Shown in pieces: positions 1 to 37,180 of a stretch of DNA of 39,709 nucleotides; the first letter of the stretch is position 1, and each line of letters begins with the position of its first letter. Below the pieces are notes generated by a model. That model searched no databases. It saw only the letters and a program-made list of their open reading frames with translations, and had not been told where the DNA came from. Position numbers and translations under genes: made by a program. This DNA comes from a candidate division FCPU426 bacterium (GTDB lineage: Bacteria; Oederibacteriota; JAAXVQ01; JAUVAV01): the NCBI GenBank assembly GCA_030637655.1, contig DAOWGI010000097.1, positions 1 through 39,709 of the forward strand, in the 5' to 3' direction.

Positions 1-3000
1 CCCCTCAGGCAGGTCTTTCATTTTAGCAATGGCTAACATCACTTTTTTAATATCATGTTCCCATCCCTTTAGCTCTGGCATGGCATTCAGCATATCCTGC
101 AGATTCAATTTGGCTGCCAGCTCTTCAGCCTGACTTTCCATACTTTCTCTTTGCTTTAAGGCCTCTGCTGCTTCCTGAAGATAGCCATTTACCAGACTCA
201 TGAACTCGGTCGAAAAAACCGCCTCTTGCTTCCGCTTAACTTCCTGCCACAGCGCAGGAGTCATTTCTCCGCGGGCCAGTGCTTTTTGCTCAGGTGCTTT
301 TTTCTCCAATTCCGCGCCGGCATAACCGCTCATGCCAAAGGCCGCAGCCACTGGGTCCCAGCGGCTCTCCATTAGGTTTTTTCTGTTTTGATACTCCGCA
401 ATGCTGCTTAATAAAAAAGCCTTCGTGTAATAGACCAGCCGCTCGCTTAATCCTGCCTCAGGATCAATATCTTTTTCCAGCACCACGCACAGGCTGTCAG
501 GAACAAAATACTGTACCCGGGTACTATGATCCGCTTGCTCAGTTCTTTCAATACACGCGCCCAACGGTTCACCATTCCAGAGACGCGTAAAGAAGTTTCC
601 TCTGGCTGATAACCCGACAAACTCCGTCTTCTTTGTGTTAAACCGTCCGGCCATTACATCGTCTGCGATCAGTGTGCTTCGCTTGAAGGCTTCTACACGC
701 GGCGTATTAGAAATAGTGCCTACTGGTTCTGTTCCAGGCAGGCAGGCAAAAACAGCTACCGCGCTTTGCAGCAGGAATATCCCGGCCAACACGATTCCAG
801 CCGCAGCCTGAAGCGGTAAGCGCAGGTTCGGATTTCCGCTGGTGCTGCGATCATTGGCAAATAGAATCGAGCGCACCAGATATTGCATGATTCTCACGGG
901 CAATTCCCGCAGTTGCCGGATCGGAACATTTAACGGCTGCGGCAGAATCCTCCGCAGGCGACGTATTTCCGCTTCAATCGCGCTTTTAGGCTGTTCTGCT
1001 TGACCTTCAGCTGCTTTACCGAGTCCAAAGAATTTCTCTTCGCGTATAGCTTGCGTTTTACCTGCTTGCGCCCTTTTTTGCCGCCACTTTTCATGCACAG
1101 TTTGAATAAAGGGCAGCATAGCTAACATACCGGTAAAATCATTTCCGAATTTTTCATGATACATAATTCGCGCGTGCACTTTCGGATCAATTTCTCCGAT
1201 CAATTCCAGGCCTCGGTCCATAATTTTTATCTCGGCCGGACTCATTTGCCGTCGCACTTCATTGTCAGACCAGGCTGGAGCCACATAAATTGCTTTTAAA
1301 AATAATCGTAATTTAACCGGGCGCGGAATTGTATCAGCCTGGTGTTCTTCCAGATAATTTTCCTGCATACTCTTATACACAGCTTTATTCACTACCCAAC
1401 CTATGTTCGCGAACCGGACAGCAGCATAGATTAAATAACCGCCCAGGAGTATAAGCGCAATTACAGCAAAGCCTGCCGCCGGATTATCAATGCCCGTGGA
1501 AATGATTAATTGAACCTCTTCATATAAAGCCTGGAATGCGAACCCGGATAGAACAGAACATATATATGCCCATAAGGCGCGGAAAGGATGCGCTTTTGAT
1601 TTTTCCCTGGCTTCAGCATCATGCCTTTTTTTGGCTGCCTCGATGCCTGCTTGTCTTTTCAAATAGTTCCTATAATTTTCTTTAATCTGAGCATCCTCAC
1701 CTCTGATTTCGGTCGGCGACAGGTCCAGGTACTGCCTAACCTTTTCCGCCATTTCCTCATCGCGCTCACGGTCTTTGGCAGTCAGCTTCTTGGTCTCAAC
1801 CTTCTCTTTTGGCAGTCCCAGAATATACCATTGGTTACCAGACTGCAGAATAATCCGCTCGATCTGAAGCGTGGTCCCAGGTGTAAAGCCAATGCAAAAG
1901 TTGAACATGCGGCGCTGCCATTCAGGGTCACTCGCCTGCTCAACGCCGACCTGCTCATAGACCGGACCCATAATCTTCAAAAAGGCTTCATCTTCCTCTT
2001 GTTCTTCAGCCAAATTGCCATAAATATCTTCTAAAACAGGCCTAAGCACCGGATCTTTGCTCCGGATGGTAGAAAGCTCAAAGAAAAATTTAAGCAAATC
2101 TATGGACGGATAGCCGCCTTGCGTGGCAAAAAACTGTATTCTTCTATAAATCGTCCCAAAATCCGAATCATCCTTTTCGCGTTGAACTTTGAGTTGATTT
2201 TCCCGGAAGCGTTCATTTTCCATCATGAGTTGGTTGACTTTGAAGATGCTCTCTCTATATTTCGGATTCTCCAGCATGAACTGGTTTATTTCCCGCATGA
2301 CCTCACGGTAATCTTTATTCTCCATTTTCTTCTGTTCAACCCGAAAGATCATCTTTCGGTAACCGCTATGCGTCATGAGCAAATCAGCAACCGCCTGCAT
2401 AATCTCCTGGTATTTAGGGCTGCCCATTTTTATATTCTCAACATCCTGCATGATCTTCCGATACGCCATGTTTTTCATCTTTTCCCGGAAGACTTGATTC
2501 TGAATACTGCGATACCATTCTTCCTGGTTTAAGAACTCCTCAACCTCGTAATTATTAAATCTGATGCGTGTACCCACTAGAGTATCATCGCGTAAAGTTT
2601 CCTGCTGCGCGACATCCCGCTGTTGAAAAAAATCTCCGAATTTTATATCTGTAACCTGCAATTGGTTAATCTCCCAATCGATCTGACGATAGAGCTTTCC
2701 CCACTTACCGTCCTTCTGCCTAAGTTTGGTTACAATCCACTCATTTTTCTGCGCGATCTCGTCATAGGGCGTGTACGCCTCCTGCAATTTCTGGATTTCC
2801 AGATTGATTTTTTCCATAATAGGTTCAAAGTCTTTATCAGCCAGCATTTCGCGCTGGATCGGTGTGGTTATTGGCACGGAAATCTTTTCCTGATAGACTG
2901 GAATCATTTCCACAAGTTGCAGAAATTGTCGCATTTTTGTCCGCTGAGATACCGGAACGCCTCCTTTAGTGGATGGCCATTTTATATTAAGCAAGTAATC

Positions 3001-33000: not shown

Positions 33001-36000
33001 AACAATGGATTTCTTGGCTTTTTTAATTTCAGTCTCCGGCACCTGGACAACCAGCGTTTTATCTTCAATGTGTTCAGGGCTTTCTTTTTTCGCGATCCTG
33101 ACAATATTATCTTTAGTGATTTTTTCAATCCCAATTTCCTGCCGAGCCTCACTTGTTCTCTCTGTCTTTTTCTCCACCGGTTTTACCGCTGCAGAAACTA
33201 TTTCCATTTCCACCTTGGTCTCTTTTTCCGCCACCAGGCTTATGCCGGGGCGATCACCAACTTTTTTTGTCTCTGCTGCTTGAAATTGCCCTGCCGGCAT
33301 ATTTAAAAAGGATAAAATAAGTATTATGGCAAAAACTTTCTTCCATCCGCCGGAAAACCAATTTTCGAATTTTAACCGGTGTATTACGCGACGCAGCTGT
33401 ATTATGAAAAAAGCCATGCTGCCAACAATCAGCCCCTGCGTTATTACAGTTGCAACTCCGAGGCCTTCCATAAACCCGGGTATTTGCAGCCCGCCTACTA
33501 TTAAGACGCCTACTACCGCTCCGATTCCGGCCAGTGCCAGGAATTGGCGGGAAGTAAGACCTCGCACGGTTCGCACTACCCCCTGGATGGAAGCAATCAT
33601 TCCATTCTGGATTTTTTTAAATAATTCAACACCAGGCGATCTAAAGCGGCGCACTGAATAGGAAATTAAGAAAATTGCTGCTATTATAGCAACACTTACA
33701 CCGATTACTTCCAGATACGGGGATGACAAAATGTCAGCGAGCAGACTACTAAAATTTACAGCCATTGGTTGGGCCGCTTGTTGCGCAGCTGCAACAACTT
33801 CCTTTGCCGCTTGAGGAGCAACTTGCACAATATCAGCCAGTGGCTGTACGGCTGCTTTCGCAATTTCAACCATTGGCTCTGCGGCTGCCGGTATATTCTC
33901 AGCAGTTTGTTTCACTGCTTCTATTGCTGCCGGTTCTAAATCAACCACCTGCTTGGCTACTTCTGATACAACCGATTGAGAAGTCTCTATAATCGCGCCT
34001 TTGGCGTGTTGTGCCGCGTCACCCAACTTTTCCGCAACTATTTGTATTTTTTGACCTGGAAAGATTTTATCAATATTTATAATCGACGGATTTAAAGCTT
34101 GAATCGCCTCTGCGGTAGTGCCCAAGCGGGCGGCAATCATGCCAAGCCAGTCACCCTTGGTAACAGTATACAAAACCGAAGTAGAAGCCTGAGCAAAACT
34201 GGTTAAAGGTCCGAGTAGTAACGCTGCTACCGCGCCCACTCCAACTTTCACCCATTTCGATGATAACCAGCCTGATTGTATTTGATCTCCAACTGATTCC
34301 GGCTTACTGTCTGCAAGAATGGCAAGCGGCCCTTTTGAAGACCAATCGCGAACAGCGCGCATTATTTCCGGCAAATTTAAGGCAACCATGACGACCGCGG
34401 CAATGACAGCGCTGACCGGTCCAGGCACACCCGCGAAAAGAGTCAACCCGATGCCCAGGAAAATAATCCCTACACTGGCAATAAAGCGAACGCTGTGGTT
34501 TAATTTTCCCTTCTCATCAAAAAATTGCCGGCTAAAATCGTTACGAAGATTACTCAAGCTGCTGCCAACATTATTTCTAAAATTGCCTGCCATGTTCGGA
34601 AGTCCGGTAGTAATGCCGCTAAACGCCTGGGTGAAATTTTTAAAAGCGCCATTCTGTTGGCCGGTGACCAGCACCGCGCCGCCGGTGGTCATAATGGCCA
34701 TAGGAGCCATGAGCTGGATCAAACCGGCACGCAGTCTTGTGCCACCATGCCTAACACCGGCCCGGCCGCCTGCCAGAATTCGCTCTTGCACTTGGGCTAT
34801 TGTCTCATTATCCATGACCACAATCTCATACTGAAAACCGGCCATGTCCAGGCGCGCCAATTCCAGAGCACCAAGCTGTTGATTCGCGCCGCGCGGCTGA
34901 ATAATGGCTGAAACACTAATGCCTTGGAAAGGCACAATATAGGTGTTGCCGGAAGATACCACATTTTCCCAATCCACAACCAAACCATTGGCATAAGGAT
35001 AATTGGCCATATCCGCTTCACAGGCAGTCCGGATTTCGCTTACTTTGGATTTGCCGCTTTCCACCTCGTTGGCAAAATCGATTTTCTGCAGAACCATACG
35101 CATGAGGTTTACAAACACGCGTACGTTTTCCGGCTGCGCTGCTTCCTCTTCCGGAGTAAGCAGGCGGCTCACCCATTCTCCGTCCGCATTACACAGGAGA
35201 GCCTCCCTAACTTGCGGAGATTCAGGAGCCAAGGATAAGATATTTTGGTTTTCAGCCAAAAGTTTTTCCAGAGGAGTTTTGCGATTACGCATCAAGGCGA
35301 AATAGGGATTGACCAAATTTTTGTGAGTAATACGCGGACGCACGGACAAATACGAAATACCGCGAGCCTGCATTTCCTGCAAAACACGTTCCGTGTGAAA
35401 CCCCCCGGTTACCATAACAGCCGTCTGAGTGCTGTATCGATTCATTTTACGCAGAGTGTTGGACACAAACACTTCCGAGCGTTCATCTGCCATGCGATAA
35501 AACGCCGACACTTTTTCCAAGTATTTATCCAAGCCATACACTTCCGCGTCCAACAGCATATCGCTTAAGGTGTCGTGTTTTTTAATCAAGTTCACAAAGT
35601 GCTTTACTGTGTACGCATCAGGATTTTGCTGAAAGGCTGTTAATTCTTCCGGCGTAGCAGAGATGTTCAGCAATTTTTCCATCAAATCGAGTTTGGCCAA
35701 GGCGTCATCCAATTGCTGCTGCGCGTCAGTGGTATACAGACAACTGCGGATATCCGCATCCAAAGTATCGATTTCCTGATAAACAGCATCCGAATCCACG
35801 TCTTGCGGCATCACATTACGACGGACGGAAACGTACTTGGCGAGATTCACCTGCGCGCTGAGATCCAACTTAATCCGGCAGCCATATCTGACCAAATAGA
35901 CCGCGTACTTTATAAGCGAAATTTCACCTTCGCGATACGCCAGTTTCCGATCATCCAATTCCTGCAATTCCGGGTTATATATCCCGGTTTTCAATTCATG

Positions 36001-36630
36001 CAAAAGCTCGCGCAAATCATACACAAAACCCTGGCTTTCGTAATTGAGGAAGCTCATGACCATGGCCCGGCTCTCATCGTACAGCTTGGCTTCTTCAATA
36101 CCATCCAGGAAAACCGGATACTGACCGGTAGCAGCATAATATTCAGCACCGCTCATTTTGCCTTGTTTCATGAAATACTTGCCGGTCTCTTTTTTAACTT
36201 TGGCATTCGGAAATTTGGAGAGGTGAGTGACATTCACCGGCAGGGAAGCGCCTTCAATGGCCACCAGTTTCAAGGCATGCTTGCCGGCCATATGGTCAAT
36301 AATATTGGCAATATTGGTCTGGACCTCGTAATTGCAGTGCAGATCCTGAACATGCACTACGAGCCGGCCTTGACCTTGATAGGCATTTAAGACTGTTCCA
36401 AAATCTTTTGGTATCGCAACGGTCTGCTCGTTAAAAATTACAGTGTCTTTTGATCCGGGATAGGCCTTGGCATCAAACGCCCAAGTCAGATACGGAAACA
36501 CAAAGGTCACAGTGACTAATAAAGCAATAATCTTGGTGAATATCTTTCTTTCCGGCTTGTGCCAATTCTTCATGAACAAAACCTGTTCAGGATCCAGACT
36601 GTTCATGATAAATGCCATGAAATTACTCAT
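1..36630 (-). CDS. Giant multidomain membrane/envelope protein, >=12,210 aa, 3' end beyond the window
   Basis: ATG at 36628-36630 follows a purine-rich RBS (AGGAAAAGGGTGA) and translates MSNFMAFIMNSLDPEQVLFMKNWHKPERKIFTKIIALLVTVTFVFPYLTWAFD. The same frame still reads as protein at the left edge (...EHDIKKVMLAIAKMKDLPEG). I found no in-frame stop while translating. The track lists no minus-strand ORF in this frame, as expected if no stop lies in the window. The true start may be a later Met (M5, M9 or M20). Confidence 0.93.
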   Translation of the reverse strand, partial: MSNFMAFIMNSLDPEQVLFMKNWHKPERKIFTKIIALLVTVTFVFPYLTWAFDAKAYPGSKDTVIFNEQTVAIPKDFGTVLNAYQGQGRLVVHVQDLHCNYEVQTNIANIIDHMAGKHALKLVAIEGASLPVNVTHLSKFPNAKVKKETGKYFMKQGKMSGAEYYAATGQYPVFLDGIEEAKLYDESRAMVMSFLNYESQGFVYDLRELLHELKTGIYNPELQELDDRKLAYREGEISLIKYAVYLVRYGCRIKLDLSAQVNLAKYVSVRRNVMPQDVDSDAVYQEIDTLDADIRSCLYTTDAQQQLDDALAKLDLMEKLLNISATPEELTAFQQNPDAYTVKHFVNLIKKHDTLSDMLLDAEVYGLDKYLEKVSAFYRMADERSEVFVSNTLRKMNRYSTQTAVMVTGGFHTERVLQEMQARGISYLSVRPRITHKNLVNPYFALMRNRKTPLEKLLAENQNILSLAPESPQVREALLCNADGEWVSRLLTPEEEAAQPENVRVFVNLMRMVLQKIDFANEVESGKSKVSEIRTACEADMANYPYANGLVVDWENVVSSGNTYIVPFQGISVSAIIQPRGANQQLGALELARLDMAGFQYEIVVMDNETIAQVQERILAGGRAGVRHGGTRLRAGLIQLMAPMAIMTTGGAVLVTGQQNGAFKNFTQAFSGITTGLPNMAGNFRNNVGSSLSNLRNDFSRQFFDEKGKLNHSVRFIASVGIIFLGIGLTLFAGVPGPVSAVIAAVVMVALNLPEIMRAVRDWSSKGPLAILADSKPESVGDQIQSGWLSSKWVKVGVGAVAALLLGPLTSFAQASTSVLYTVTKGDWLGMIAARLGTTAEAIQALNPSIINIDKIFPGQKIQIVAEKLGDAAQHAKGAIIETSQSVVSEVAKQVVDLEPAAIEAVKQTAENIPAAAEPMVEIAKAAVQPLADIVQVAPQAAKEVVAAAQQAAQPMAVNFSSLLADILSSPYLEVIGVSVAIIAAIFLISYSVRRFRSPGVELFKKIQNGMIASIQGVVRTVRGLTSRQFLALAGIGAVVGVLIVGGLQIPGFMEGLGVATVITQGLIVGSMAFFIIQLRRVIHRLKFENWFSGGWKKVFAIILILSFLNMPAGQFQAAETKKVGDRPGISLVAEKETKVEMEIVSAAVKPVEKKTERTSEARQEIGIEKITKDNIVRIAKKESPEHIEDKTLVVQVPETEIKKAKKSIVEEDANAALKHAEKKKTTKFRDFGKHFQMMLKKTPSDTKAATDIKRLDLPWDYTSYGKAVERLRLNPFAERILASTIDFSTENQSLLWNSRISPQLRFRLGSIGGDQWLRDIEEKMWEDEREGATWGFIVELTYAPDWGTLYRISKPTITDRFSWSYGLGLESTLGLYTDYSKLRPYGDITAVGSINSQWKWGSRNQWFYDMGLSARYSILRYMPELAAQGRTPAQQGLAIGPAFTIGRSWSDGNVLSWGTGIQATDAGLFDFKENGELRARGQFSPYLRTGPTWTTPGGTQLQLFYALTADDWKFEKDSQNHSVNLQLSIPIETITKRVDRFCRGIIGHDYSAAAASQTAKRAFGTGVVGMVLAALTYFGLTFLLGAGAYNTILTTSLVAVIGAMIPFLTAWQTNHWSRIIKRVMPGGDAIARDRGELTKEQIAALRDLKFSRNKVERDLYQAILTHESYSSHTWGNWAMNPVIGRLIRFFKSPDQPDRAAEIDVQVGSGDSIFKGAAGDELFDALWRSDDKVAAVKKLRELVEKQDLTLEQFKATLSWFKSRAFQMRAQAELDKHSNKKDKMTYLQADTALSMAVSSFIAAVLLSGNKEVKTFVRKQFDEKKTDQDLLCGLAEYRLVDIGKDIKLTSIEKKANDLVKKANSALKWEAHKNQTEFEKMKPSDLADRLEVIIDERIEGLVKIKDADRGFPGLGLLAKRVQRTKVRAAAKVLENLRKEIRVIAGNDGIAVGERVADIMKLAQAGNGAAPLPFIVLSHKENRKLFAGKELYAEMVARRDAGKIVTDVEAAEAKAGLARWEEYQRNIKLGQTVQVLNLRDKLDEDWTMFRYIMKLAWSKVDAAQITQDQLSTDKAGNPRKLRVGMGFSMYGEINRLQPNISESPLGHPSGEDALRQKVEQLDDNFAWNENLQWELYAVDDSGDPYKPKHENPDSITDIAKIDEIIMEFAEQSRLASEEDRKIETDYLILRVPEDVMKDEKKILEIREKAKATLLNIGEKLDEQFDVRVQEAKIEFDRLDKKFKEVNKRVDFILSITGIPGSIAMVIANLKPVVWITSKISGFIATGIITGLDIIKSILILIADLPVISTIITFITGIILFLAKITGITLLFSGIADVLSGIKGLSAIVSATGIAGIMGKIFGFLLHLDAMTLTIIGVSGLLIYLFPYIFGAKRKSFETETFKKGDIDLNKLSKALAKKHKVNTLVLKKLGMKADELAGLTEEQALEALNYVLVNEDLYIAADIEDEKLRQAICSIQIRAKENTEFGGKLTPKDLLLLNRSLLQKHFGAVLQPSMNLKELRDEAEFDLQNAENAKAKNIDEIRRIPKDGITLTIIAGDTPFLTDPAECAAQEGPPILFTNDACSSGRVMDNIKKQILLEHPTQAERYKKQINVEYFTDRLRSRGYTAKQAQESKKGGGVKESMQWQVEQGVDLVCSTDLDTSVNLSFTGSLIKPHFDSGTEMLGLTYGSRVGRESVVYGKPFTRKVMSAAFNTMVRMILSIGSIPDTQCGFKCFKPEVVQKVIELSSSIRMEFETEVQTLTILSGHKVRGIEIPWVDSAKESTVAAGRDSAEFLLAAVEQRLLHMTGHDISQYEHSFLDSAAKFRFATLMMIVDGMILSFKFPDLTKKYWALLSEDGRVPEGLVGKIGLALGYRKSPIFKQAAAVRYVQRKLKLQEAYFPAALNPFAVDLSSVNADIRREKIDFSDIRDDFLQALRRDGNITNAMSDAIINKLDGQPADVPAEFMRIVQEMVYRTKVLYFLVAETGLSINEAENVIDMAVEFDYSDVRKLKKALITLGQDFGAISKLNTFNLSDNTGLEAILMRLQNIDAKRRGKQGFSEEVVQSVIDAYYAEQTNLQVQLDYSEKARNSDQVKTLAAKFLNEIQGDDRGQLMSLENEIARLAGLDSIEAQELHALEERITEIANPGLLIFAISAVAYLETPQKQVNVVNQVRKAVVAAVMAHSQYGQISELVDQQFVVANTPEAGGLMIRPAEYQAEGFFEGTAITLADVQGVDADKPRQTVAALLNKLNTGRQTKLNDIETQKAGVNLAKTAIAMIKGKDSRVYKPSQMQRLAENQAIAFIGSILVGAGFLVFGVHIITFSIIAIFSLTVGWFLAYGVTRSKTRGWIMALLAAVFAFAITYGAFFHIILAIIELNLAQVLTGLAWIIFLNITSVTVGKITKNLLWNKGMLGKVSTIGMVIVGLYFGDWVFQLLNGGLWFQGLAQIGPIFKFGPVITMFDVNWGPFFQLGWINILFGPVIGLLLGLVKLMTLERSKGRQQPLRQRVLSIAKQAVILIVVPIGGFFNWLIQMYYRLQGQKQPLRQDMDSWLDSEIFLVDHAALRNENGQLSSQGMAILKTANEYMYDRGYENIELKGVESLGPGLIGSVAALFSLEEIQQQAAAGQNRLAAIRITRTGVKSGAVAMDGADGTVDFTQQVQTYAESRESQLDRQAAFVVSRIEHMFSQAEAEFLINAVGITFDNGMDSAGKMVFMQMVRDQLAAKGLEVVDIRWGDASRLDAQTEIRVNNFTREKIGYLALEQEGMHARLFKRQTADIFFEKARVFMQGLKYGDRAKETPAQTEATETPEIYTPRAFLNQAAVSTAVASFPRFLPFIGKRLGSGILAKAVTFMIMAPYALYMAFFMNTKKVELMATGDQLQVAKWLSLDVAAYHVPFRERTADIHPVMERQYADRVDVVFHTYEWEKYISFYMSEKGITDRSAAEMALLSQASRNNICINLETVFAREEAQSLGLSDKDYVIAANQVAVAEKLMQEKIEMVKLLRARWQTENKGKQIPVKIVFDPWHISEIYFAELEQAKQSGKDVKDVRKKLAGKLQRFFDQAGDMVGRLHISNTPYNMLGAGEFLTHGLSVFDRNSIIDINGFLSYANEKIPGIWQNATLEVNPCYGLVKQPLLVKVFLALAVPALILGVLIKAAVLSPAAAGKAYGIGALSTNIRIGIVRIFKYIFFNDEAEGIRVANREAETKRAEYQADTQSTYASVIDYLDTVLESNKTNRENILMTLLLTPSADQISRDLKIDNLVSLLEKETKLSVISRILLDLQFAEVSWVKSSGYEAAVLERIKQAIFNNPVYQKYLQPQNLAAAQTPREFKERFEAGWRERLRKQQISLGELTQTIKSVQAQNIEENVSAFQNIIAQLEIIAKVDINGLDGDEYQQVQKAFQAIRQSAEWLYQFQTEGLNEDQVNLLKLISNTGSIQGYREEIDQILRAATGLLIEFDRSYLSFDELPNQAFSNIHSFKGEIQKKIKQRYQAVKTAIEGLGAVDAASLDDTAWQLYQNIFTAAKAEATFMFEEMIIGLELEEYNYVKNVSAAESMADYEMIKLEDRTSLLTICQAESRVLVMQGHDGRDHSYVITEVNEEQKYALGVELATGAIHRIVIADEAQAKQAEKLQRRFDRQGLPGLAAFKFQTNDVRVIDQVGEQARMPKIKNQSFIVTAEPLGQTAQEYLKEKVEALQANEQEISQAEAKQAELISTLDQLEPDMKLLQHYEWMLKGSQDRLTRIEAEIAKLAGKAVLLKKEKIRLQSLRSRRAEVRQQLVKFQTQVRKITNKVNETAGKLSEYKTARELVVALDAELTPLYDELGKFYHEREKMKLAHLARITELAQKFQKAVNIFETNGVVYTGDLNQVLINADGDIMITDYYKTDAQAAPQTSFYQRFKNILFDFQHDVYDKRNVIKIADFMKYLNQDVKGKTVLEMDVQEFREFLDKQVETAEAEVRDLQQELSAAQSKLNQEPENTTCQKALEEIQTQLTEAQKKTERLKARYQDKHFDSEYNTNLNNYVNIIEKARKSRGNADRYMGQKTFSNLPLLSQGLYFLGAVVMAAAGIWIVVLMIASGSPFLLAMGVLFALGFSTILIDSFIPGAVRGARFSVLGIMFAIVPAFIFFTQAVVIFVIAIGVIWLVDFNREAGLADKRGELKYTTDRSVIGDEHEFRAEDTRVAATQRRGFYGSVRQIDKDLNTIWSKMGYMIQDRSALSQQVSEEEVKKAIDIARQQQGIKPGEKLIISVSTTLSDWMGIYRRNEIAGAVGTLDTIFKRIGAYGMPPELHPLLNNLVVDRRILPKQAKRKADFLDGLAKAAAEAKDQKTVSDPIEDIKLLYEIQRWLGDIRADETAAELRRLQSSARERTAKMPIEALGSGFRAEDMDLRAVVSNITSAGRDGELVPKDLQPFEMEKLHEMLKLLRKGKAVAADETQRLANLWQQLSDRNLQDPESIEDLVRIADAQKTLNADAATAITGLKQLNKYVELHLSTQLAQIAKDIENLRQLIIASFGSEVKRPLVIADPKLRQLYNVLADQGLLDNLKTLADPSKKLQAMTYLRDVCQSVGQRGRIHPHALELATMGQRIGEIIAGNLKIKTDLPAIGTGVLTTLSQVANDEMDIIPELQAKDKNTQKPIPNKLINLKGEMGRLGKSGGVSEFMQQTIIELANAAGPEVEFVMMVNSPPGPLRYKKEIPLHSLLPERVDDNGVVFSPALKHNNLKLIQTYHDEGTNIDFLYNLPRNLSESYRSNSVIEFINMLLTSQGDKNKLGAVVAHISRSINSFLKPQVAVYHHVAERVDLKATQEQVGPLEEVGTWGLSQMIYGGYLNKIMFLQPEYARAISQYNPWYPNLINRTGVVPHQLLNKAEVGPAIDYTRLSLNEMYAFTFGKLGSYKFTDIYYQAVMEIQENQRKKTQLTIKKNARLKVVAEFPGDPQRQKRKLSYYQYQAAIRLRLKNSKSLSADEALAEDQVKEEIQKQVTIFLEEQKRLPQNVSEEKAVIQQALSEDIQELLDAEIEKHLINIHFTGGPHPNPALAGDKFAGEAVARYVMGLVGSNILYTGFVEDEDVARYYKAGIHLMSHTFGTGRPGPLANFPEVLAIALLSVPDIYRVHLAEGMRFFFLGGYATVKREEVVQMRNNAMKLFARQLNRTFFEKGTVKITPEQVFRLFKNQFFVDKAFFADLPKDDEDTRIDLDLMANHIRSLAKTPAGRLKIKGITIRINQELGEPGITLLGNDVKDTDNEDEKARKLTNDMILLIEAITSDASRKAMMSDLITSLDETEDRMAGQQKKASFSDAGTQAAIDTIEAEADTEAESTEIEKQEPLNFKGAFFRGILGSGLMIVGVVFLITSSAVVFPLLGMVLGIIILAFLSERNPGISLLCLGLGSLATGITLIIISSWAVVPVIMGVFGLLMLSGWAGRQLSLNATKEQRKARAFEKAGFQTGDVIIPETIFRLNRDLVDFFRFFETPQGKKAMTEAALLNRQIQTQYEPARVMRNYVLQIMEVLHNKLPWYQRWGQYMWYVNPIGRVLIDIGLHPHGFVRQTSRFIGHYFKQILLLLPVTISVKIYDTFIKSFLQIVLPKIKDAVIWLKDKVAVPMVSIFITGVSLAMDGIIRFFRLEIVGNVTQIIKDIANFIKDEIIIRFAKFVWRNMKRILKKFWEEKLVPFFRVLDKVWNKHIRPVVITAQDWLVVRLKFIADLIIRFKAPIMGAVFFNMAIIAFATGTSDISAQLITNTMKVAVSYDLSQTLLVVSLMLMINYATTYFIEFFTEKSFRYNTMKTLAQMSYGLVPTLLYQVAVLFMVAVFLGPILVEPGYYALLRMLETTLVGVFISYWGNQNIVQKMTGRLKIPVLLAKDNIVFLLRAVILMLPKPASVLFKENVWDVYIWPVIKFFHLDPFFIWLQNISIDIYHVFIETVQNLIQFLDISPMHWLYSVAIIYLAWKLVKFFNYIGLEKFARGNWRYLTTGTIAVIALSILFNWHMSIPVIQVFVGLILAEKFVKGIVEGVRRTGKTIRELRKMRPGPAAGAMLWGTLKFFGKVFYFIAIGIVFTFWLYGGFAYANYYIVAGIVAVVTTIFSLWSAGKTGLLGKSPWRMIAVIVSVVTGMFFVGSILTANTFLPGFFAITSGLLILMVFGMFRIFYSPRTRQRIRSEHTDPLIEKRLKKMNEVIPMDDLVWREKAFRRLFIYAALAAMVFFSAMGQIRIPGIAYSLPLSLLTPTVSIQGPWLVIFLTALLSLGVFALIQIVRNRINRKPSDQEKREAKPGFWRRAILNMAMFGLIVLSVLPLAKKADSHMGSPRSLKWPSLQTAFDNLINRTAPIDRQRVSSWFTPREDRTTETGVKQAQGGRRTRADTARIGPVNQIDYLLNGLCSHTQNDEIIRPPNAIQNREYKNLETPVTFKRITTKGLVQPLFYDKDAKQLLYSPVYVTRDLNNFYLEAKSGQPRAQVNFLMSPDELNRTRYLRYDYNGIYKGQKSWLDVKITVLTNNRQEQEIYVRPWFTYGYVSLDLKGAILREGLDITDITVAEVSIRINHSQGEVFGNLQNLRLASEHTEFWKRVQTIDIYDYQQVKAFCQDMNISFTFFIMTMQDLIYGYSEDNSRVYEIGKYNFYARRTSEIPRFINDIQTDAQQVSLALESLADDAQQQNWTDEEKKRRVFAKLKKLRLAGNKQLKKELIDMHKAFGTERWSVVELERKLRLRWAGIAADGWENKYFWTFIVPEEHVYRPVNFEREYRKFMVTAPGHGKPRAGYSGEELFSPAIVQYKDTAFVVDSNLPEQPETLANNQISLVNFLVTPQLNLSPAGFENMLTMESMFKIETLCLDYMLNSAKRNGKLSLADQVTLSAFEQGRITPEQKKAMFQGLGLQEVYTSEESLLQAYRLAQMLKPYSTVKSLKYNLFRRKELRTTFANQRKLLSMNNQVELLKQFGSQEELLTAWSNNMNLHTLVRQHALRKYSALELETRILYYNWEILKFYPGDRLQHELATKFSGGGGKIGHSNPKLDMRDRDDYAILTELNYVIAQNGHNPITMNDLKRIQREDSGMKMVVDESGIRHFIPWPRYFFSKYWTPQVLYDFIRTRHPAYFYGNTDARVLPLHELAIENSNVGETWDQMKTTVGTQFETTGVQALCDKYGVSPDILRGLLDLSAWEFNELANESQVKLGLLKPIRRDLRKQAEVDFDARLKAGDKTLLAEIDQEAQILINEARVQGKRLLFDTARTQAIPGVKEQWVRRAWQNQEAPLFDQAQKKAQTELERGRAKDILLAVYIDQLDKLPDYGLKDAADMLDLMHDPERLWKTGVMEEDNYDQMVDLLLSDRLLVKYGIYTRGDMDKIFQSMMFARQQWYKPEARFIRPEPVAGGQSPIDDELVGITKVLIGEYKRISTEGTNWKLRFMQWCIDAFKKGRDIPSVKPIETGELFVAYDKSQLTLENFFEMLNSNAQQQREALFWRKVADKVQLGRVLPTDLVEYIKGMELKFEQELGINFWKVNPSLTDEQLLQHFSPYKLLHKDIADQWLALDGWNELRAARYIGQLFYRSRMGEDITLNNTLFRNFVMNEMANRPDMTPVKPFTVQSFDFFQMTDERIEQAFEDGEIPIPVVASRDRYVLSKNLRVWGMDERGVRITQNPDNSIDIKGTSTRQRTGYATGKMIIPTDMNVVAIQVDEITPGTPLFIKIVGDKFQHEGEVEAQIHRKRVQQLIKELQAKATNEADRHQAVELAYKIAEQEAKQRRQKHVQAVSARPTEKIEKPLVALDIPQGGQTYFVVLPKDKLAEVGGAIRLDIGLVGQWMEETVRGHEDPESGTLTTAKGRNEVVAGTGARIKGISLLRPDRCPPEIQYMIENPGITLITQYGYVNPDAGSRPNIGVDVTKQRTQFSIPTERNTQGVFSGLDIHTVRDADGNYWIRMRGNGDQQWRFAYKLPEMVEKVTGVTGEYQVRGKPVEGYGQITDKQQGNVIKLVGANLDESKQPAWWDAATTQSIQSTLQDIQNQDGNSARVFVPYQAFGRENVNKAYLSKLEQIVRQAKARNMMVAISLFNGYTDYDLDTHETENQAHAQTIIQCLGKYPNIIWGLTDRPDQAVRNKPEFIQRIYAHENSIRWHKKMVSFIKTIDNRQHAVMIETTSADAVYRLLDPHVLEKVDIISIQADDPNSPLGPQIEKIKAFLRNNTLNCAIVIADFPGQVSESSVEQLNTTLFAAHDISGIFFAYQAGQVNTLPPGFQDLAKTRATDLSEVQAKPRQLKVYVDKSDTTRLIKFADNSFTEQMWQSRSMDVEVTRVQPEKEEDRPLLSSGSVEVFNGNHRNARDATPDKIDTPGIMVKGNARPAQSGTPAPNQGAVRMPGRVKVHLDRENVCLKLALDQRRGQYFVQIHNSTLGTMNLVQESESFGEEINIADFLRQHGLRGEQSFELSFGIRDMRSQNGNLDAQAVFQFKIVKSDAVEAIKDKPGTLQQNTILVPKNAGEWIRPIIDPEGTGKIEQTEEKGGKEYGISNIRVRLTELPVAIMAYAHSQTPLANLQLAIEVSPEMARRAGKEKNWIRLSPYLSKGLMYYEIGPEARELLLKNKETGEYYEFVLKPSLSTEMEMVSCDGQQALLSIQMLDAAQDARFKILLQGKGQAPNIIIGSAEHQDPRRKIIRIQKGAERQPIKTPEKSLSEPGVDNKDFLPMLQSPYIDLKTIVELCSIRGMAGTMNSRYLVVGTEFPVVTSIPRNSIGMSADQIQYNQRYGGVPTDLRSDAATMGFQRGMNSMTPFVEYLVNSPQYSLNRVLVGNSGYDRLQIHTGFEKIGTVPWYKFQRGGMTMWEKETRRTLMDDINPDVRALHGGDFEVKEHSDEYRNRIIKEFEKDLTGSHEVPKSLQTIWRVCKTIHNSLAIQLILLVVLLILNLVLRTKTFNRLLYRLSETPKRAMLAAFIIWFTLHGVSRSWNHIWDWWTYFNQQVEPQRVTRFLGSNPYFYGKIGYYHPWPFKIIALVDNLLYKAGLQGDGGVIIYEQQKGTKEVVLDSDVRVKAWLDAVVPKKYTLDQYNQMARNMGFPDFQTYIKARRLAGSQLAVFIQNCGDILLEKKLNSRELPRSKGRVLLHTRSWQDWVRQIEKDLTTYRGGDILPLKIDKVRFQKILAKAGYRIEDMGNLPEFQTYQELYKVIDAFAGEFAYPDYHLPKLGLAPINHTNFHNDLTREIQQELNYYAKHFGFKNTTDLLTDLPPGEEVLEYLRHWKVVLPIESVRAGGLAAIQFAPQVQKEVEIVQGLKDKHDKEAWKQTQSIEKGIKASKKRHEQYTRTKLRQQRQQPQVKKKGSFQPKLFFGPIFAVLPLIGGFLVYACLDGGNAWLLLALSLPTVLAAALWLLSAPYQISLAKMAFTKRVPLTEAETVYIKNKLADLGLLDDPSAPLNIRIMPDEKGLGRLKYLFIRHGLNYNKSTNTLEVDAFFYLMSAAKQKKLLRHEWQHYLDRNLGMNLSRRLPFGLRHLFNLGTWFRKEFRGARVEFFSNKKLLQPSQADRQARRQQTMAKQRRFTRAPYRMLGYTFILLMAVIAISNNWQRVTNFWSGAFSDKTRIERTLDEAGEVAVSRTTDQPKLFLDIKDRQTTTQREHDQTPLAIERTYVETVKEWGAVRAVGEVQPDGSVVIRYVLDDVEAGKPRQDRRHGTVAAPFAIIDDIIRVIIEIKSIKGEAGVPGSAYCFINRPDGTAFTVPIALGPGENSYVIDNRFFRKMLKGYAGPLGEAEVGFLKDNYDFRATVILEELLRKTDQKDVEAFLERRAYYAEKVFQALEAAGVSDDLLKASRREAIRLLAESKKNPELLAELKRRAEKEYTLRQDEFKTNDNFKAFDDQKAERLYELEQDAMKSSVYRVMKEKAAELQYEEDQKSKNDPAYKARRQEAVNKKHELEQIRRLLPGYGSMLDVAAEYQYQERHKLTGFSELLKQADELTYQRIQKNLDLLDKILRAAAGYQYEQETEARKDPAYQKMEREAGGLAFSLVQQKLDSQKKVGKTGARDHLLAAGEKRNTLMQKEMESQAFVNQILKRDLEFDQSLRCARNQDQALFDFLLKMGRKRRKLVARHANEKGDKEFAATADSYTIELSTGKESFADADDAYIIKQRGLNLADIDKHPKRDEIMAGIWDWNQFSKERMRREIADHPHSNRLEGKKRQWDNRIELGIGRALEANPQIRDELIHQFCRQFDLDEKLVKQEWQAWDGAPGIAGVQKLSFNKFADYLLNIKWPSTKGGVPVSQRTKMRQFLQLVEMIPVYQEKISVPITTPIQREMLADKDFEPIMEKINLEIQKLQEAYTPYDEIAQKNEWIVTKLRQKDGKWGKLYRQIDWEINQLQVTDIKFGDFFQQRDVAQQETLRDDTLVGTRIRFNNYEVEEFLNQEEWYRSIQNQVFREKMKNMAYRKIMQDVENIKMGSPKYQEIMQAVADLLMTHSGYRKMIFRVEQKKMENKDYREVMREINQFMLENPKYRESIFKVNQLMMENERFRENQLKVQREKDDSDFGTIYRRIQFFATQGGYPSIDLLKFFFELSTIRSKDPVLRPVLEDIYGNLAEEQEEDEAFLKIMGPVYEQVGVEQASDPEWQRRMFNFCIGFTPGTTLQIERIILQSGNQWYILGLPKEKVETKKLTAKDRERDEEMAEKVRQYLDLSPTEIRGEDAQIKENYRNYLKRQAGIEAAKKRHDAEAREKSKAHPFRALWAYICSVLSGFAFQALYEEVQLIISTGIDNPAAGFAVIALILLGGYLIYAAVRFANIGWVVNKAVYKSMQENYLEEHQADTIPRPVKLRLFLKAIYVAPAWSDNEVRRQMSPAEIKIMDRGLELIGEIDPKVHARIMYHEKFGNDFTGMLAMLPFIQTVHEKWRQKRAQAGKTQAIREEKFFGLGKAAEGQAEQPKSAIEAEIRRLRRILPQPLNVPIRQLRELPVRIMQYLVRSILFANDRSTSGNPNLRLPLQAAAGIVLAGIFLLQSAVAVFACLPGTEPVGTISNTPRVEAFKRSTLIADDVMAGRFNTKKTEFVGLSARGNFFTRLWNGEPLGACIERTEQADHSTRVQYFVPDSLCVVLEKDIDPEAGLSERLVYYTKAFLLSSIAEYQNRKNLMESRWDPVAAAFGMSGYAGAELEKKAPEQKALARGEMTPALWQEVKRKQEAVFSTEFMSLVNGYLQEAAEALKQRESMESQAEELAAKLNLQDMLNAMPELKGWEHDIKKVMLAIAKMKDLPEG
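5190..5520 (-). other. Zincin-like HExxH module following a transmembrane hairpin
   Basis: LNYNKSTNTLEVD..KKLLRHEWQHYLD (HEWQH at 5302-5316), with a downstream Glu in KEFRGA as a possible third ligand. Confidence 0.55.
9016..9810 (-). other. GH5-like (clan GH-A) TIM barrel with both catalytic glutamates replaced
   Basis: KLVGAN..WW..IQSTLQDIQNQDGNSARVFVPY..KLEQIVRQAKARNMMVAISLF..GKYPNIIWGLTDRPD (NEPD position)..IKTIDNRQHAV..VDIISIQ..IVIADFP (EFG position). Confidence 0.72.
14760..17640 (-). other. Large polytopic membrane region (about 15 or more hydrophobic helices)
   Basis: A long series of hydrophobic segments, from GILGSGLMIVGVVFLI to AILNMAMFGLIVLSVLPLA. Confidence 0.75.
18330..19730 (-). 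other. GT-B (GT4-like) glycosyltransferase domain
   Basis: N-terminal KSGGVSEF loop, KIMFL...TGVVPH, AFTFGKLGSYK (18961-18993, compare FGRLxxxKG), IHFTGG and NILYTGFVEDEDVARYYKA (18421-18477). Confidence 0.7.
21200..21490 (-). other. Four-helix transmembrane bundle
   Basis: LYFLGAVVMAAAGIWIVVLMIA; FLLAMGVLFALGFSTILI; FSVLGIMFAIVPAFIFF; AVVIFVIAIGVIWLV. Confidence 0.75.
22000..22900 (-). other. Protein-kinase-like fold, probably a pseudokinase, with a coiled-coil insertion
   Basis: Hinge-like FIVTAEPLGQTAQEYL (22582-22629). C-lobe-like FETNGVVYTGDLNQVLINADGDIMITDY (22000-22083) resembles LHxxGIVHRDLKPxNILxxxxGxxKIxDF. Confidence 0.45.
24271..25185 (-). other. Xylose isomerase / AP endonuclease 2-like TIM barrel (sugar phosphate isomerase/epimerase family)
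   Basis: Family motifs in order: KVEL, AYHVP, VVFH, INLET, IVFDPWH (24568-24579), RLHISN, LTHG, TLEVNP. Confidence 0.75.
26060..26750 (-). other. Multi-pass transmembrane bundle (about 7 hydrophobic helices)
   Basis: Examples: AIAFIGSILVGAGFLVFGVHIITFSIIAIFSLTVGWFLAY, GWIMALLAAVFAFAITYGAFFHIILAII, WINILFGPVIGLLLGLV. Confidence 0.75.
28300..30402 (-). other. GT2 (GT-A) glycosyltransferase of the dolichyl-phosphate glucosyltransferase-like type, split by an insertion of about 437 aa
   Basis: N-half: VGMGFSMYGE...WELYAVDD (30211-30402). C-half: KKGGGV, DxD motif STDLD (28666-28674), GSR, DTQCGFK (28450-28470), EFETE, IEIPWVD. Confidence 0.85.
32035..32790 (-). other. Putative outer-membrane beta-barrel domain (about 250 aa)
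   Basis: Successive amphipathic Gly/aromatic-rich strands: WGFIVELTY, FSWSYGLGLESTLGLY, WFYDMGLSARYSIL, IGPAFTIGRSW, LSWGTGIQA, FSPYLRTGPTW, QLQLFYAL and a terminal HSVNLQLSIP. Confidence 0.55.
34039..34170 (-). other. LysM peptidoglycan/GlcNAc-binding domain
   Basis: YTVTKGDWLGMIAARLGTTAEAIQALNPSIINIDKIFPGQKIQI matches the LysM consensus YxVxxGDTLxxIA...N......I.PGQ.L.I. Confidence 0.92.
35250..36420 (-). other. N-terminal TraB/Tiki/ChaN(EreA)-like metal-binding domain of the giant protein
   Basis: Motifs occur in superfamily order: LVVHVQDLHC (H 36337-36339), LVAIEG (E 36253-36255), DERS (R 35479-35481), AVMVTGGFH (H 35395-35397). Confidence 0.6.
36478..36573 (-). other. N-terminal Sec signal peptide or signal anchor of the giant protein
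   Basis: MKNWHKPERKIFTK-IIALLVTVTFVFPYLTWA-FD: basic n-region, hydrophobic h-region and a small residue before a plausible cleavage site. Confidence 0.7.
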
Positions 36631-36784: not shown

Positions 36785-36819
36785 ACTAATTGTTGTGTCA
36801 TATTGACACAACAATTAGT
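36785..36819. promoter_or_regulatory. Perfect 16-bp inverted repeat, candidate regulator binding site
   Basis: ACTAATTGTTGTGTCA-tat-TGACACAACAATTAGT, located upstream of the predicted -35. Confidence 0.6.
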
Positions 36820-37003
36820 GCAAATACGATTCCAAATAATCCTTTATTTTTCAATGTTTTTTTATAGAATAATTTTCTCATCTGTTGGTAAGTGTCAGAA
36901 TAGGGAAAAAATAGGCATTTTGAGGGAAAAAACTCATTTCTTTACAAAGAGCTTAAAACAAATTCCAAAAATACTTACATTTTCCGGGCGAACACAGAAT
37001 ATA

Positions 37004-37180
37004 AGGGCGATTACAGGGAATCGCCCCTACGGTTAATTTCGGGCACGCGGTTTTTGCGGGCGCACTCAGTGCGCCCCTACGGTTAATTTCGGGCACGTAG
37101 TTTTTGCGGGCGCACTCAGTGCGCCCCTACGGTTGATTTCAAGCGTGCGATTTTTGCGGGCGCACTCAGTACGCCCTTAC
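37004..37180 (-). repeat. Cluster of four GTAG-type REP hairpins in a 50-bp tandem array
   Basis: GGGCGATT..AATCGCCCCTAC, then three GGGCGCACTCAGTGCGCCCCTAC-type units with a 50-bp period (37022, 37072, 37122, partial 37172). CTAC reads as the GTAG foot on the minus strand. Confidence 0.85.

Follow-up and report, generated by a model that had tools for sequence, protein, structure and literature searches.

What a single uninterrupted reading frame of 36.6 kb encodes, and whether it represents one real gene, is the question raised by this contig from a bacterium of candidate division FCPU426. The window, a stretch of 39,709 nucleotides, is the whole of contig C73 of genome G000, and all features described here lie on its minus strand. 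The giant ORF (1..36630) is the sole frame of its kind in the ORF listing. It opens with an ATG at 36630, 5' of which lies a purine-rich run resembling an RBS, and it proceeds through 12,210 codons to the end of the source without a stop (stop-to-stop span 12,216 codons), as an earlier sequence-only reading had claimed. The in-frame stops that the same reading had named as grounds for rejection do not occur, and with the base composition of the window the probability of meeting none in 12,210 codons is approximately 10^-318. Codon-position GC (GC1 0.50–0.58, GC2 0.32–0.41, GC3 0.42–0.49) follows a like pattern in 12 of 12 windows of 1,000 codons each along the frame. As the window is the whole contig, the 3' end of the gene is truncated by the assembly, and comparison with relatives gives an estimate of ~425 residues for the missing C-terminal part. 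The gene is genuine and conserved, and its product is a multi-pass membrane protein of ~12,600 aa. Collinear orthologs occur in two other genera: a 13,678-aa frame of relative G001 aligns through collinear HSPs over 8,825 of the 12,210 residues at 30–43% identity, and fragments from G004 reach 40–60%. When body residues 5146–9860 were compared with database proteins (8,000 candidates scored), there were 0 matches among those of 5,500–17,500 aa and 3 among shorter ones, 2 of which are 100%-identical fragments of the same gene. Giant frames are usually split by contig ends, and the few matches are weak evidence that the giant gene may be rare. Of 7 RNA run rows, 0 contained the giant stretch.

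The assembly is corroborated by public runs. A single 35,435-nt contig built by another assembler from run X1 spans window positions 1645–20000 with 0 differences. Three further samples agree, with coverage of 30 of 30 bins in X2 and in X3 and of 29 of 30 in X4, and no run shows an indel. The assembly chimera that the sequence-only reading had put forward as its other possible refutation is contradicted by these data. One low-depth contig in X4 joins 552 to 13590 through 14 foreign letters and was rejected as a contig artefact, X1–X3 being contiguous at both places. The C-terminal region of the ORF (1..990) has 94% DNA identity to a giant gene on contigs C115 and C7, which overlap exactly over 141 nt, and it is because of this shared region that the assembly breaks here. 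The last ~1.6 kb of the gene exists as two assembled variants in the public runs, and Logan contigs around the repeat are broken into short variant pieces. Both ends of C73 match the first 1.4 kb of C7 at 96–98%, and a 5'-open frame of 193 codons at 39126..39707 corresponds to a giant-gene C-terminal tail (96% DNA identity to the C7 tail, with the same stop context). Two arrangements were considered: C73 may be a circular or tandem unit that closes on itself, or there may be a third paralog upstream.

A conserved N-terminal head of the TIKI/Ere type, overlooked by the sequence-only reading, defines the family to which this gene belongs. The protein begins with a K/R-rich stretch and a hydrophobic signal-anchor helix (residues ~29–53, 36472..36546; 26–51 in the structure model) that is kept in 21 of 21 aligned heads, followed by the family-defining domain (residues ~60–470, 35221..36453), recognised by conservation, fold model, fold matches and a motif from the literature. 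The model (pLDDT 89.3, pTM 0.83) predicts an alpha/beta core of TIKI/erythromycin-esterase/ChaN type interrupted by a helical insertion of ~220 aa. The five best Foldseek matches are EreC and Bcr135 entries (best E 7.8e-3), and the VIA-wide search ranks 2qgm, HopBA1, EreC, Bcr135 and ChaN highest (157–181 residues aligned, rmsd 3.4–5.4 Å), with Z of 8.4–9.0 against 7.8 for unrelated Rossmann-like rows, a margin of about 1. All five are listed as TIKI-superfamily members in PMC6254334. Across 67 sequences E126, R384 and H412 never vary, and conservation of D96 and H98 is at least 90%. The H98–E126 spacing of 28 equals that of Bcr135 H85–E113 and RRSP H3902–E3930.

Set against the TIKI/Ere/ChaN superfamily (Bcr135, EreC, ChaN, HopBA1, RRSP, PMT), whose members are the best structural matches to the head core by two aligners, the head carries what appear to be the same His-x27-Glu pair, distal His in G-G-x-H and conserved Arg. 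D96-x-H98, E126, H412 and the basic R384 are conserved and are candidates for the 2His/2Glu motif and its basic residue, with Asp in place of the first Glu. The head also differs from superfamily members in the ~220-aa insertion that splits its core, in its fusion to an N-terminal membrane anchor and thousands of further residues, and in lacking sequence-profile membership: no superfamily model matches it in Pfam/NCBIfam tiles (E ≤ 1 or 0.01), and a search of PDB sequences with a head profile gave 0 matches at E ≤ 10. We describe it as a putative membrane-anchored hydrolase domain of TIKI/erythromycin-esterase type.

In genome G000 this head is carried by 29 frames, together 8.7% of the DNA, from which it follows that the family must be central to the organism's biology. 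At E ≤ 1e-3 it matches 9,238 database cluster representatives, and in every one of the 150 matches listed it is N-terminal. Since each member starts with the same TIKI/Ere-type head, the family is sharply defined and easily recognised. Within the phylum the head is restricted to one order, being found in 15 of 99 genomes (all 10 of family f1, all 4 of family f2 and none of 84 elsewhere). The family is thus large and lineage-specific, with a signal-anchor helix and head first and highly variable bodies thereafter; the head is the only part common to all members, and modules are shuffled between relatives of the giant gene. Relatives are titled Ca. Firestonebacteria, Ca. Goldiibacteriota (Goldbacteria), candidate division FCPU426 or 'uncultured bacterium', and none is labelled Omnitrophota. 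Head-bearing proteins of 911–2,600 aa carry Pfam domains of sugar and central-carbon enzymes, among them FBP aldolase, FBPase, PGM/PMM, alpha-amylase, glycogen phosphorylase, GT1, GH130 and PPDK, and also radical SAM and methyltransferase domains.

Four recognisable soluble modules of the giant protein are related to carbohydrates, and all four had been named, at least by type, from the sequence alone. The LysM domain (residues 821–864, 34039..34170) matches positions 1–42 of the 43 in PF01476 (E 4.6e-11, 42.9 bits against a cut-off of 20.9). The GT2-type glycosyltransferase module (residues 2500–2830, 28141..29133) was confirmed by an indirect route, through homology and motifs. Pfam returned 0 families at E ≤ 1 for residues 2401–2900, so that the embedded copy falls below the PF00535 model, and PDB sequences gave nothing usable. 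The module matches a stand-alone protein (BLASTP E 2e-12) that itself belongs to PF00535 (E 2.6e-35), and its Asp, DxD (D2653-x-D2655), GSR and DTQCGFK motifs are conserved; D77, D154-x-D156, S185-R186, D222-T-Q-x-G-x-K228 and E252 in module numbering do not vary among the 7 sequences aligned. The stand-alone GT2 proteins of the same genomes, ~250 aa in length, are presumably of the DPM1/GtrB/ArnC-like polyprenyl-phosphate glycosyltransferase type. Identity is 30% over the C-terminal half and all core motifs align, whereas the embedded copy differs in its first strand and in an insertion of ~45 residues that follows the first Asp. GT2 of either kind, embedded or free, occurs in 83 of the phylum's 99 genomes.

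The two remaining modules are TIM barrels. The sugar-isomerase barrel proposed earlier holds at the level of fold: the model of residues 3761–4125 (24256..25350; barrel ~3806–4125; pLDDT 85.3) is xylose-isomerase-like and of sugar epimerase/isomerase type, with a Foldseek E of 6.9e-4, a Z of 14.4 (rmsd 3.7 Å over 214 residues), one superfamily accounting for 50 of 50 listed matches, and a protein-atlas lead scoring 0.84. Ketose 3-epimerases and sugar phosphate isomerases (PF01261) share this fold, and the copy in the giant ORF has candidate Glu/Asp-His/Glu positions, but identity is 8–18% and this copy has no PF01261 match at E ≤ 0.1. The barrel is confined to the giant frames of a single order (6 of 99 genomes), and 4 of 14 copies match PF01261 weakly (best E 0.01).

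The GH5-type barrel (residues 8900–9320, 8671..9933) belongs by sequence to the GH5 cellulases, reaching 25.2 bits against the PF00150 cut-off of 23.5 when scanned as an isolated domain; 12 of 17 related copies match PF00150 (best E 1.8e-11), and NCBI names an ortholog fragment 'cellulase family glycosylhydrolase'. It departs from them in the replacement of both catalytic Glu: TDRPD stands in place of TNExD and IADFPG in place of FEEFG, motifs that we take to carry the acid/base (N-E-P) and nucleophile Glu of clan GH-A. The replacement is found in this copy and its three closest orthologs and recurs in the PDB alignment, a weak one to an endoglucanase (E 0.073), while 13 more distant copies keep TNExD and (F/L)EE(F/C/H)G-type motifs. 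With both catalytic Glu replaced, hydrolysis by the canonical mechanism is not available to this module, which is better regarded as a probable lectin-like or structural derivative.

Between these modules the body of the protein alternates soluble modules with blocks of TM helices. A hydrophobicity scan, on which alone the dozens of TM helices claimed earlier are borne out, identifies ~50 helix-length hydrophobic segments in ~16 clusters, and the description of a giant modular membrane protein is supported. The largest block (residues ~6591–7288, 14767..16860) holds ~15 hydrophobic helices by the same scan and has 3 homologs in the 15 genomes of the order; a 740-aa query for this block gave no usable match and no family in the protein atlas. 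In our crude count the parity of the helices from LysM to GT2 hinges on whether two weak segments are included, and since it is ambiguous a two-sided layout of these modules is an assumption. The zincin motifs of the sequence-only reading reduce to one HExxH (HEWQH, residues 10439–10443, 5302..5316), against 0.15 expected by chance in the whole protein; this putative zincin site lies in a block conserved with the single ortholog.

About 20% of the residues are assigned; the remaining ~80%, without a match in Pfam or NCBIfam tiles, carry no assignable domain. LysM and GH5 are the earlier domain calls recovered by profile searches; the embedded GT2 and TIM barrel lack profile matches, as do the proposed GT4-like, kinase-like, beta-barrel and beta-sandwich domains (40 tiles, E ≤ 1), and the NCBIfam library added nothing beyond sub-threshold matches of LysM and coiled-coil type. 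No flippase, polymerase or exporter was found in 40 tiles against two libraries. Neither SecY nor SecA was found inside the giant ORF (no SecA_DEAD match in 40 tiles at E ≤ 1); in its own genome SecA_DEAD was found only in an 883-aa SecA and one sub-threshold fragment on contig C63, and it is present in a sister gene in G001. Directly upstream of the giant ORF and on the same strand lies a phosphoglucomutase/phosphomannomutase gene with four domains (37177..38823), an adjacency not seen upstream of the G001 gene.

The explanation we favour, to which we give roughly an even chance, is that this genuine member of a TIKI-headed family is a multi-enzyme scaffold embedded in the envelope and acting on sugars or surface glycans; the scaffold function is inferred. 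On the cytoplasmic side, GT2, which resembles the stand-alone protein, would together with the TIM-barrel enzyme modify and load sugar units, and their precursors could come from the PGM/PMM gene next door. Binding of peptidoglycan or glycan on the outer side would fall to LysM and the dead GH5 barrel. The positive-inside rule predicts that the head also faces outward, where it could be an active esterase or protease that processes either the giant protein itself or an envelope substrate.

The closest competitor, which we consider possible yet clearly less probable than an intact scaffold, overlaps with it and differs in the mature form of the product. In this model the ORF encodes a polyprotein precursor that is cut by the TIKI-type head, or by another protease, into separate membrane-anchored enzymes and binding proteins, so that a single gene would supply the parts in fixed stoichiometry. 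The head's conserved His, Glu, His and Arg appear to correspond to those of active TIKI proteases, the head is the sole constant part of the family, TM blocks separate modules that are shuffled between relatives, and West-Roberts et al. have made the same proposal for the N-terminal C39/S8 peptidases of Omnitrophota giants. Against cleavage by the head, esterases also belong to its superfamily, as do ChaN, PMT and other proteins that are not enzymes (PMC6254334), and an outward-facing head could not reach cytoplasmic linkers.

We regard as unlikely that the protein is an apparatus for attack or attachment, a weapon or adhesin at the surface by which the cell wall of prey or host would be bound and degraded, in line with proposals for the giants of Omnitrophota. 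The protein does contain LysM and a GH5-type barrel, distant GH5 copies in other giant frames keep their catalytic NE...E motifs, and published readings of giant genes point the same way. However, the GH5 module of the present gene has lost both catalytic Glu, adhesin repeats, dockerins, beta-helix and toxin domains were not found in any tile, and ~50 TM helices together with a GT2 of cytoplasmic type speak for an integral protein of the inner membrane rather than a secreted one. Still more doubtful is the sequence-only reading's proposal of a complete glycan synthesis-and-export pathway, with several glycosyltransferases, isomerase, kinase, exporter and hydrolases in one polypeptide. The four sugar modules, the adjoining PGM/PMM gene and the sugar enzymes across the head-bearing family uphold its carbohydrate theme, but neither the 40 tiles and two libraries nor the atlas search with the membrane block yielded a second glycosyltransferase, kinase, flippase, polymerase or exporter, GH5 is without its catalytic Glu, and with ~80% of the protein unassigned completeness cannot be claimed. 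That the frame is an assembly chimera, decayed pseudogene or chance opening is highly improbable, since a contig end inside a shared repeat with a variable terminal ~1.6 kb and the one X4 join are outweighed by a stop-free frame of uniform codon-position bias, collinear orthologs, independent assembly, and the absence of internal DNA repeats at E ≤ 1e-10.

A broader proposal, which we put forward only speculatively and hold to be improbable as a whole, is that TIKI-headed giants constitute an undescribed system in which much of the sugar and envelope metabolism of one Goldbacteria/FCPU426-like order is built into mega-polypeptides threaded through the membrane. An outward hydrolase head would mature or anchor them, one sister gene per genome with SecY-SecA in cis could thread them, and the present gene would be a client or modular variant. 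The natural shuffling of modules provides comparisons between dead and intact GH5, and between genes with and without the embedded SecY-SecA. The head, at ~420 aa, is compact and suited to expression and assay, and it is a marker for giant genes in fragmented metagenomes, with 9,238 clusters already available.

Giant genes have so far been described mainly in Omnitrophota, and the present family extends to another candidate phylum the same design principle, in which sugar enzymes are embedded among dozens of TM helices in a chain of thousands of residues. In the literature covered there is no account of the head or of giant genes in the FCPU426/Goldbacteria/Firestonebacteria lineage, and the head-bearing giant family appears to be new relative to that literature, whereas the giant-protein design is known from Omnitrophota. 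Omnitrophota giants include the 'Archaeovorin' type, in which GT, GH and peptidase modules accompany TM regions and N-terminal C39/S8 peptidases are proposed to cleave the giants (West-Roberts et al. 2023, bioRxiv 10.1101/2023.11.21.568195), and a 'multi-enzyme metabolic cluster' class with a sugar module that includes PGM/PMM (Nielsen & Lui 2026, bioRxiv 10.64898/2026.06.07.730766); most full-length Omnitrophota giants carry a divergent SecA DEAD domain. The present ORF resembles them in exceeding 10,000 aa, in its numerous TM regions, in a mosaic of GT, GH and peptidase-type modules set in mostly unannotated sequence that is readable by structure prediction, in a putative hydrolase near the N-terminus, in a sugar-metabolism theme that includes PGM/PMM and in the many such genes per genome; a sister gene in G001 additionally shares SecA-DEAD. 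It differs in lineage, by the labels of its relatives, in possessing a GT of family 2 rather than 5 or 1, in lacking SecA-DEAD and dockerin (40 Pfam tiles, E ≤ 1) and, compared with the multi-enzyme class, in having PGM/PMM as a separate neighbouring gene. Where Omnitrophota giants have a C39 or S8 head this protein has one of TIKI/Ere type; 'Tiki' and 'erythromycin' are absent from the text of West-Roberts et al., as is 'erythromycin' from that of Nielsen & Lui. The giant is probably a counterpart in kind of the multi-enzyme/Archaeovorin-type Omnitrophota giants that belongs to a separate candidate phylum and begins with a head of its own.

The giant gene of the window is best read as encoding an envelope-embedded multi-enzyme scaffold. 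The sequence-only reading had proposed a hidden giant frame, and the ORF listing bears this out with one minus-strand frame that runs from an ATG at 36630 to base 1, 12,210 codons without an in-frame stop, and is open at the contig end (12,216 codons measured stop to stop). At the window's base composition stops are expected at 5.8% of codons, which gives such an open frame a probability of about 10^-318. Codon-position GC is even across all 12 windows of 1,000 codons, a purine-rich run lies 5' of the ATG, and no internal DNA repeats were found in the gene at E<=1e-10. The genome itself (G000; 3.28 Mb, 120 contigs) has an estimated completeness of 91.6%, and the window is one of its contigs in full (C73, 39,709 nt). 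An assembly chimera is contradicted by a relative from another genus of the same family, G001, whose complete 13,678-aa frame has the same N-terminal head and is collinear with the giant protein, HSPs of 30–43% identity accounting for 8,825 of the 12,210 residues. Contig-limited fragments from a further relative (G004), at 40–60% identity, correspond to aa 1,124–4,438, about 6,560–9,320 and 10,250–10,550. In the metagenome run X1, a 35,435-nt Logan contig from another assembler spans 1645–20000 and beyond with 0 differences; X1 is probably the source sample and so represents another assembler's result rather than independent data. The window's bins are also present in runs X2 (30/30), X3 (30/30) and X4 (29/30), mostly at >=99% identity, with a single SNP and no indels. 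The four runs, none of them RNA, are all metagenomes of cold seeps and come from one study. A low-depth (4.4) Logan contig in X4 links window positions 552 and 13590 through 14 unrelated letters, probably a contig artefact because X1–X3 are contiguous at both places. Orthologs, another assembler and other samples agree that the frame is a real, correctly assembled gene.

The body of the protein is a membrane-rich string of modules. A Kyte-Doolittle scan gave 76 overlapping hydrophobic windows, which would represent about 50 segments of helix length grouped into about 16 clusters, in line with the dozens of transmembrane helices proposed, and soluble stretches of 100–2,600 aa lie between the clusters. 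Pfam searches of 3 large and 40 small tiles returned nothing beyond LysM and a borderline GH5. The predicted LysM domain is secure (aa 821–864, minus strand; 42.9 bits against a cut-off of 20.9). The GT2 claim is upheld by PF00535-type homology, as aa 2,695–2,799 match the C-terminal half of a stand-alone 257-aa protein of the same genome (30% identity, E 2e-12) that is a clear PF00535 member (E 2.6e-35). Stand-alone GT2-type proteins or embedded copies are matched in 83 of the 99 genomes of the phylum, and embedded copies recur in other giant frames. The module, two orthologs and four stand-alone GT2s (7/7) keep the first Asp, K-G, D-x-D, G-S-R, D-T-Q-x-G-x-K and a Glu, motifs from which the module looks catalytically competent; by its DTQCGFK-type motif it would be of the polyprenyl-phosphate glycosyltransferase type. 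The sugar-isomerase barrel holds at the level of fold. This TIM barrel (aa 3,761–4,125) is found again at 19 other sites, each within a giant frame, in 6/99 genomes; a protein atlas gives a weak lead to PF01261 (score 0.84), which 4 of 14 copies weakly match. Its model (pLDDT 85.3) retrieves xylose-isomerase-like barrels in Foldseek (E 6.9e-4) and L-ketose-3-epimerase in a separate structure search, VIA (Z 14.4, rmsd 3.7 Å over 214 residues), where 50/50 among the matches listed belong to the xylose-isomerase-like superfamily.

The GH5 module (aa 8,900–9,320) has 17 further copies in 7/99 genomes, almost all in giant frames; of 17 aligned copies 12 match PF00150 (best E 1.8e-11), and the copy in the window reaches 25.2 bits, above the cut-off of 23.5. 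Thirteen distant copies keep 'WGxTNExD' and 'ILFEEFG', while in the window's copy and the three orthologs closest to it, sequences of the 'TDRPD' and 'IADFPG' type stand in their place. Read against the catalytic glutamate roles in clan GH-A, both catalytic residues are gone, and the module is thus a hydrolase-derived domain, as first suggested, that presumably serves binding or structure. For the zincin motifs proposed, the one candidate is the protein's sole HExxH, at aa 10,439, which lies within a block conserved in the single available ortholog. Much of the domain reading behind the proposed glycan pathway therefore survives, but a complete fused pathway exceeds the evidence, the assigned part being about 2,400 residues or about 20% of the protein. 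Cysteine is very rare (0.3%) and histidine low (1.4%), and long E/K/Q-rich coiled-coil-like stretches (for example aa ~4,560–5,040 and ~10,700–11,650) return coiled-coil noise alone from the libraries.

The head, the first ~470 aa, has no match in Pfam, NCBIfam or a profile search of PDB sequences. Its AlphaFold2 model from a 67-sequence alignment (pLDDT 89.3, pTM 0.83) has an alpha/beta core (strands 78–95, 122–125, 174–177, 403–408 and 426–432) split by a ~220-aa helical insertion. All of Foldseek's top five in the PDB are entries for the erythromycin esterase EreC or for Bcr135, an Ere-like protein (best E 7.8e-3). VIA, which is independent of Foldseek and covered 48,161 chains, places 2qgm, HopBA1 (5t09), EreC (6xcq), Bcr135 (2rad) and ChaN (2g5g) first at Z 8.4–9.0, with unrelated rows next at Z 7.8 and PMT at rank 49. 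The available portion of Jang et al. 2018 (PMC6254334) lists HopBA1, Bcr135, ChaN and PMT in the TIKI superfamily, names the Ere family, and gives a 2His/2Glu motif with a conserved Arg (RRSP E3900, H3902, E3930, H4030; Bcr135 H85, E113). The head has D96-x-H98, E126, R384 and H412, the last in a G-G-x-H context, and the H98 to E126 spacing of 28 is that of Bcr135 and RRSP as given there. Across the 67 sequences E126, R384 and H412 never vary, and the conservation of D96 and H98 is at least 90%. The moderate Z margin and the motif comparison suggest that the head is a hydrolase domain of the TIKI/Ere type, probably active, which by the positive-inside rule would face the periplasm.

When every frame of the genome is searched by BLASTP, the first ~470–620 residues prove common to 28 other frames (30–52% identity) and the body almost unique. 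The 29 head-carrying frames, the window's included, amount to 95,366 codons, 8.7% of the genome, and the head is found in 26 of the 47 frames of at least 1,500 codons. Together these 47 frames make up 14% of the genome; the 21 without a head include frames of 9,469 (C20) and 8,540 codons (C8). Some of these 21 are 5'-truncated at contig ends, and others may belong to further giant-gene families. In an alignment of 21 heads, a start rich in K/R leads into a hydrophobic anchor, behind which comes a domain of ~420 aa where many positions are invariant. Searched against 1.84 billion proteins, a profile built from this alignment matched 9,238 cluster representatives at E<=1e-3, of which 5,063 reached E<=1e-30; among the best 150 of the 9,238 the matching stretch is always N-terminal, in proteins of up to 7,768 aa. 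Named head-bearing records are MAGs titled Ca. Firestonebacteria, Ca. Goldiibacteriota, candidate division FCPU426 (a 16S name for the Goldbacteria clade in the portion of PMC7031533 available) or 'uncultured bacterium', and the Omnitrophota label is absent among them. Within the phylum the head occurs in 15/99 genomes (10/10 of family f1, 4/4 of f2 from the same order, 0/84 others), at 7 to at least 15 copies each; where genomes are near-complete, frames reach 12,551 aa. Head-bearing proteins of 911–2,600 aa in a 5.8-billion-protein collection (39 matches, most annotated 'hypothetical protein') carry precomputed Pfam domains. These domains, some of them named in the sources, correspond to class II FBP aldolase, FBPase, PGM/PMM, alpha-amylase, glycogen phosphorylase, glycosyltransferase group 1, GH130, PPDK, HAD, radical SAM and methyltransferases. 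By this content, therefore, the head family fuses sugar and central-carbon enzymes to a membrane-anchored head. TIKI-headed giant proteins are a newly recognised family.

Directly upstream of the giant gene lies a separate four-domain phosphoglucomutase/phosphomannomutase (PGM/PMM) gene (37177–38823, minus strand), an adjacency not seen upstream of the G001 giant gene. PGM/PMM domains are also embedded in one head-bearing protein (P0163). Around the PGM gene, the intergenic DNA contains several hairpins of the GGGGCGA...TCGCCCC type, a direct repeat of 60 nt (87%) and, upstream of the giant gene's start, a 35-nt perfect-stem hairpin; these hairpins and repeats lie at 36785–36819, 37001–37030, 37022–37081 / 37122–37181, 38990–39013 and about 38940–39110. 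One element also matches contig C97, and together the elements resemble a dispersed family of repeats or terminators.

The giant frame's final 965 nt are 94% identical in DNA to the end of another contig (G000:C115:26308–27272), where a second giant frame, of 3,806 codons, is likewise open. C115 overlaps another contig, C7, exactly (its final 141 nt against the first 141 nt of C7), and in C7 the frame goes on for ~420 codons to a stop, and the G001 gene stops 428 codons past the point aligned to the giant protein's last residues; the complete giant protein is therefore ~12,600 aa. Giant aa 11,879–12,201 and C115 frame aa 3,484–3,806 are 91% identical as protein (of 321 codons, 18 differ synonymously and 28 non-synonymously) in genes that are otherwise unrelated, which points to a conserved module at the C-terminus and to recent exchange among the paralogs. 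Pfam matched no family in this tail, and weaker copies are seen in other head-family members and G001. The opposite end of the window (39707->39126, minus strand) holds the tail of a giant gene, its last 193 codons, with 96% DNA identity to C7 (of 194 codons, 14 differ synonymously and 8 non-synonymously) up to a shared stop beyond which the sequences are unrelated. Because both contig ends, 1–162 (97.5%) and 39126–39709 (95.9%), match the first 1.4 kb of C7 (G000:C7:1–1402), the contig could close on itself over a ~650-nt gap as a circular or tandem unit of ~40.4 kb with one giant gene and PGM. Alternatively, the tail at 39126–39707 could belong to an upstream tandem paralog, a third with the same tail. 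Tandem arrays are present in G001, and public contigs split into two variants within the end repeat.

Some relatives carry Sec-type domains inside such giant frames. The G001 frame (G001:C1:35076–76109; loci L111–L113, L117) contains a complete but divergent SecY domain (PF00344, E 4.9e-40) with SecA DEAD and P-loop domains after it, a part with no counterpart in the window's giant protein; SecY/SecA was not found inside the window's ORF, and its genome shows housekeeping SecY and SecA alone. Such a second, divergent SecY lies above the Pfam cut-off inside giant frames in 7 of the 15 genomes of the order (also at G002:C19, G014:C6, G011:C8, G003:C297, G004:C62 and G010:C13), each of which has a normal SecY too. 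In the available text of West-Roberts et al. (10.1101/2023.11.21.568195) SecYEG is mentioned only as encoded apart from giant genes, and the word SecY is absent from that of Nielsen & Lui (10.64898/2026.06.07.730766). Within the same bounds, Tiki and erythromycin are absent from the former and erythromycin from the latter, and the main-text literature covered yielded no description of giant genes in Firestonebacteria, Goldbacteria or FCPU426.

The main rival to a scaffold is that the giant protein is matured by cleavage into many parts. For Omnitrophota giants, the portions of West-Roberts et al. (10.1101/2023.11.21.568195) available state that N-terminal C39 or S8 peptidases 'might cleave the giant proteins', and describe many TM regions with divergent SecA-DEAD, GT, GH and peptidase domains. 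Compared with those descriptions, the window's gene differs in lineage, head and GT family and is without SecA-DEAD. The corresponding portions of Nielsen & Lui (10.64898/2026.06.07.730766) define a 'multi-enzyme metabolic cluster' class whose sugar module includes GT1 and PGM/PMM, the latter sitting inside Omnitrophota giants. By analogy, the scaffold encoded in the window may work like the Omnitrophota giants and this multi-enzyme class.
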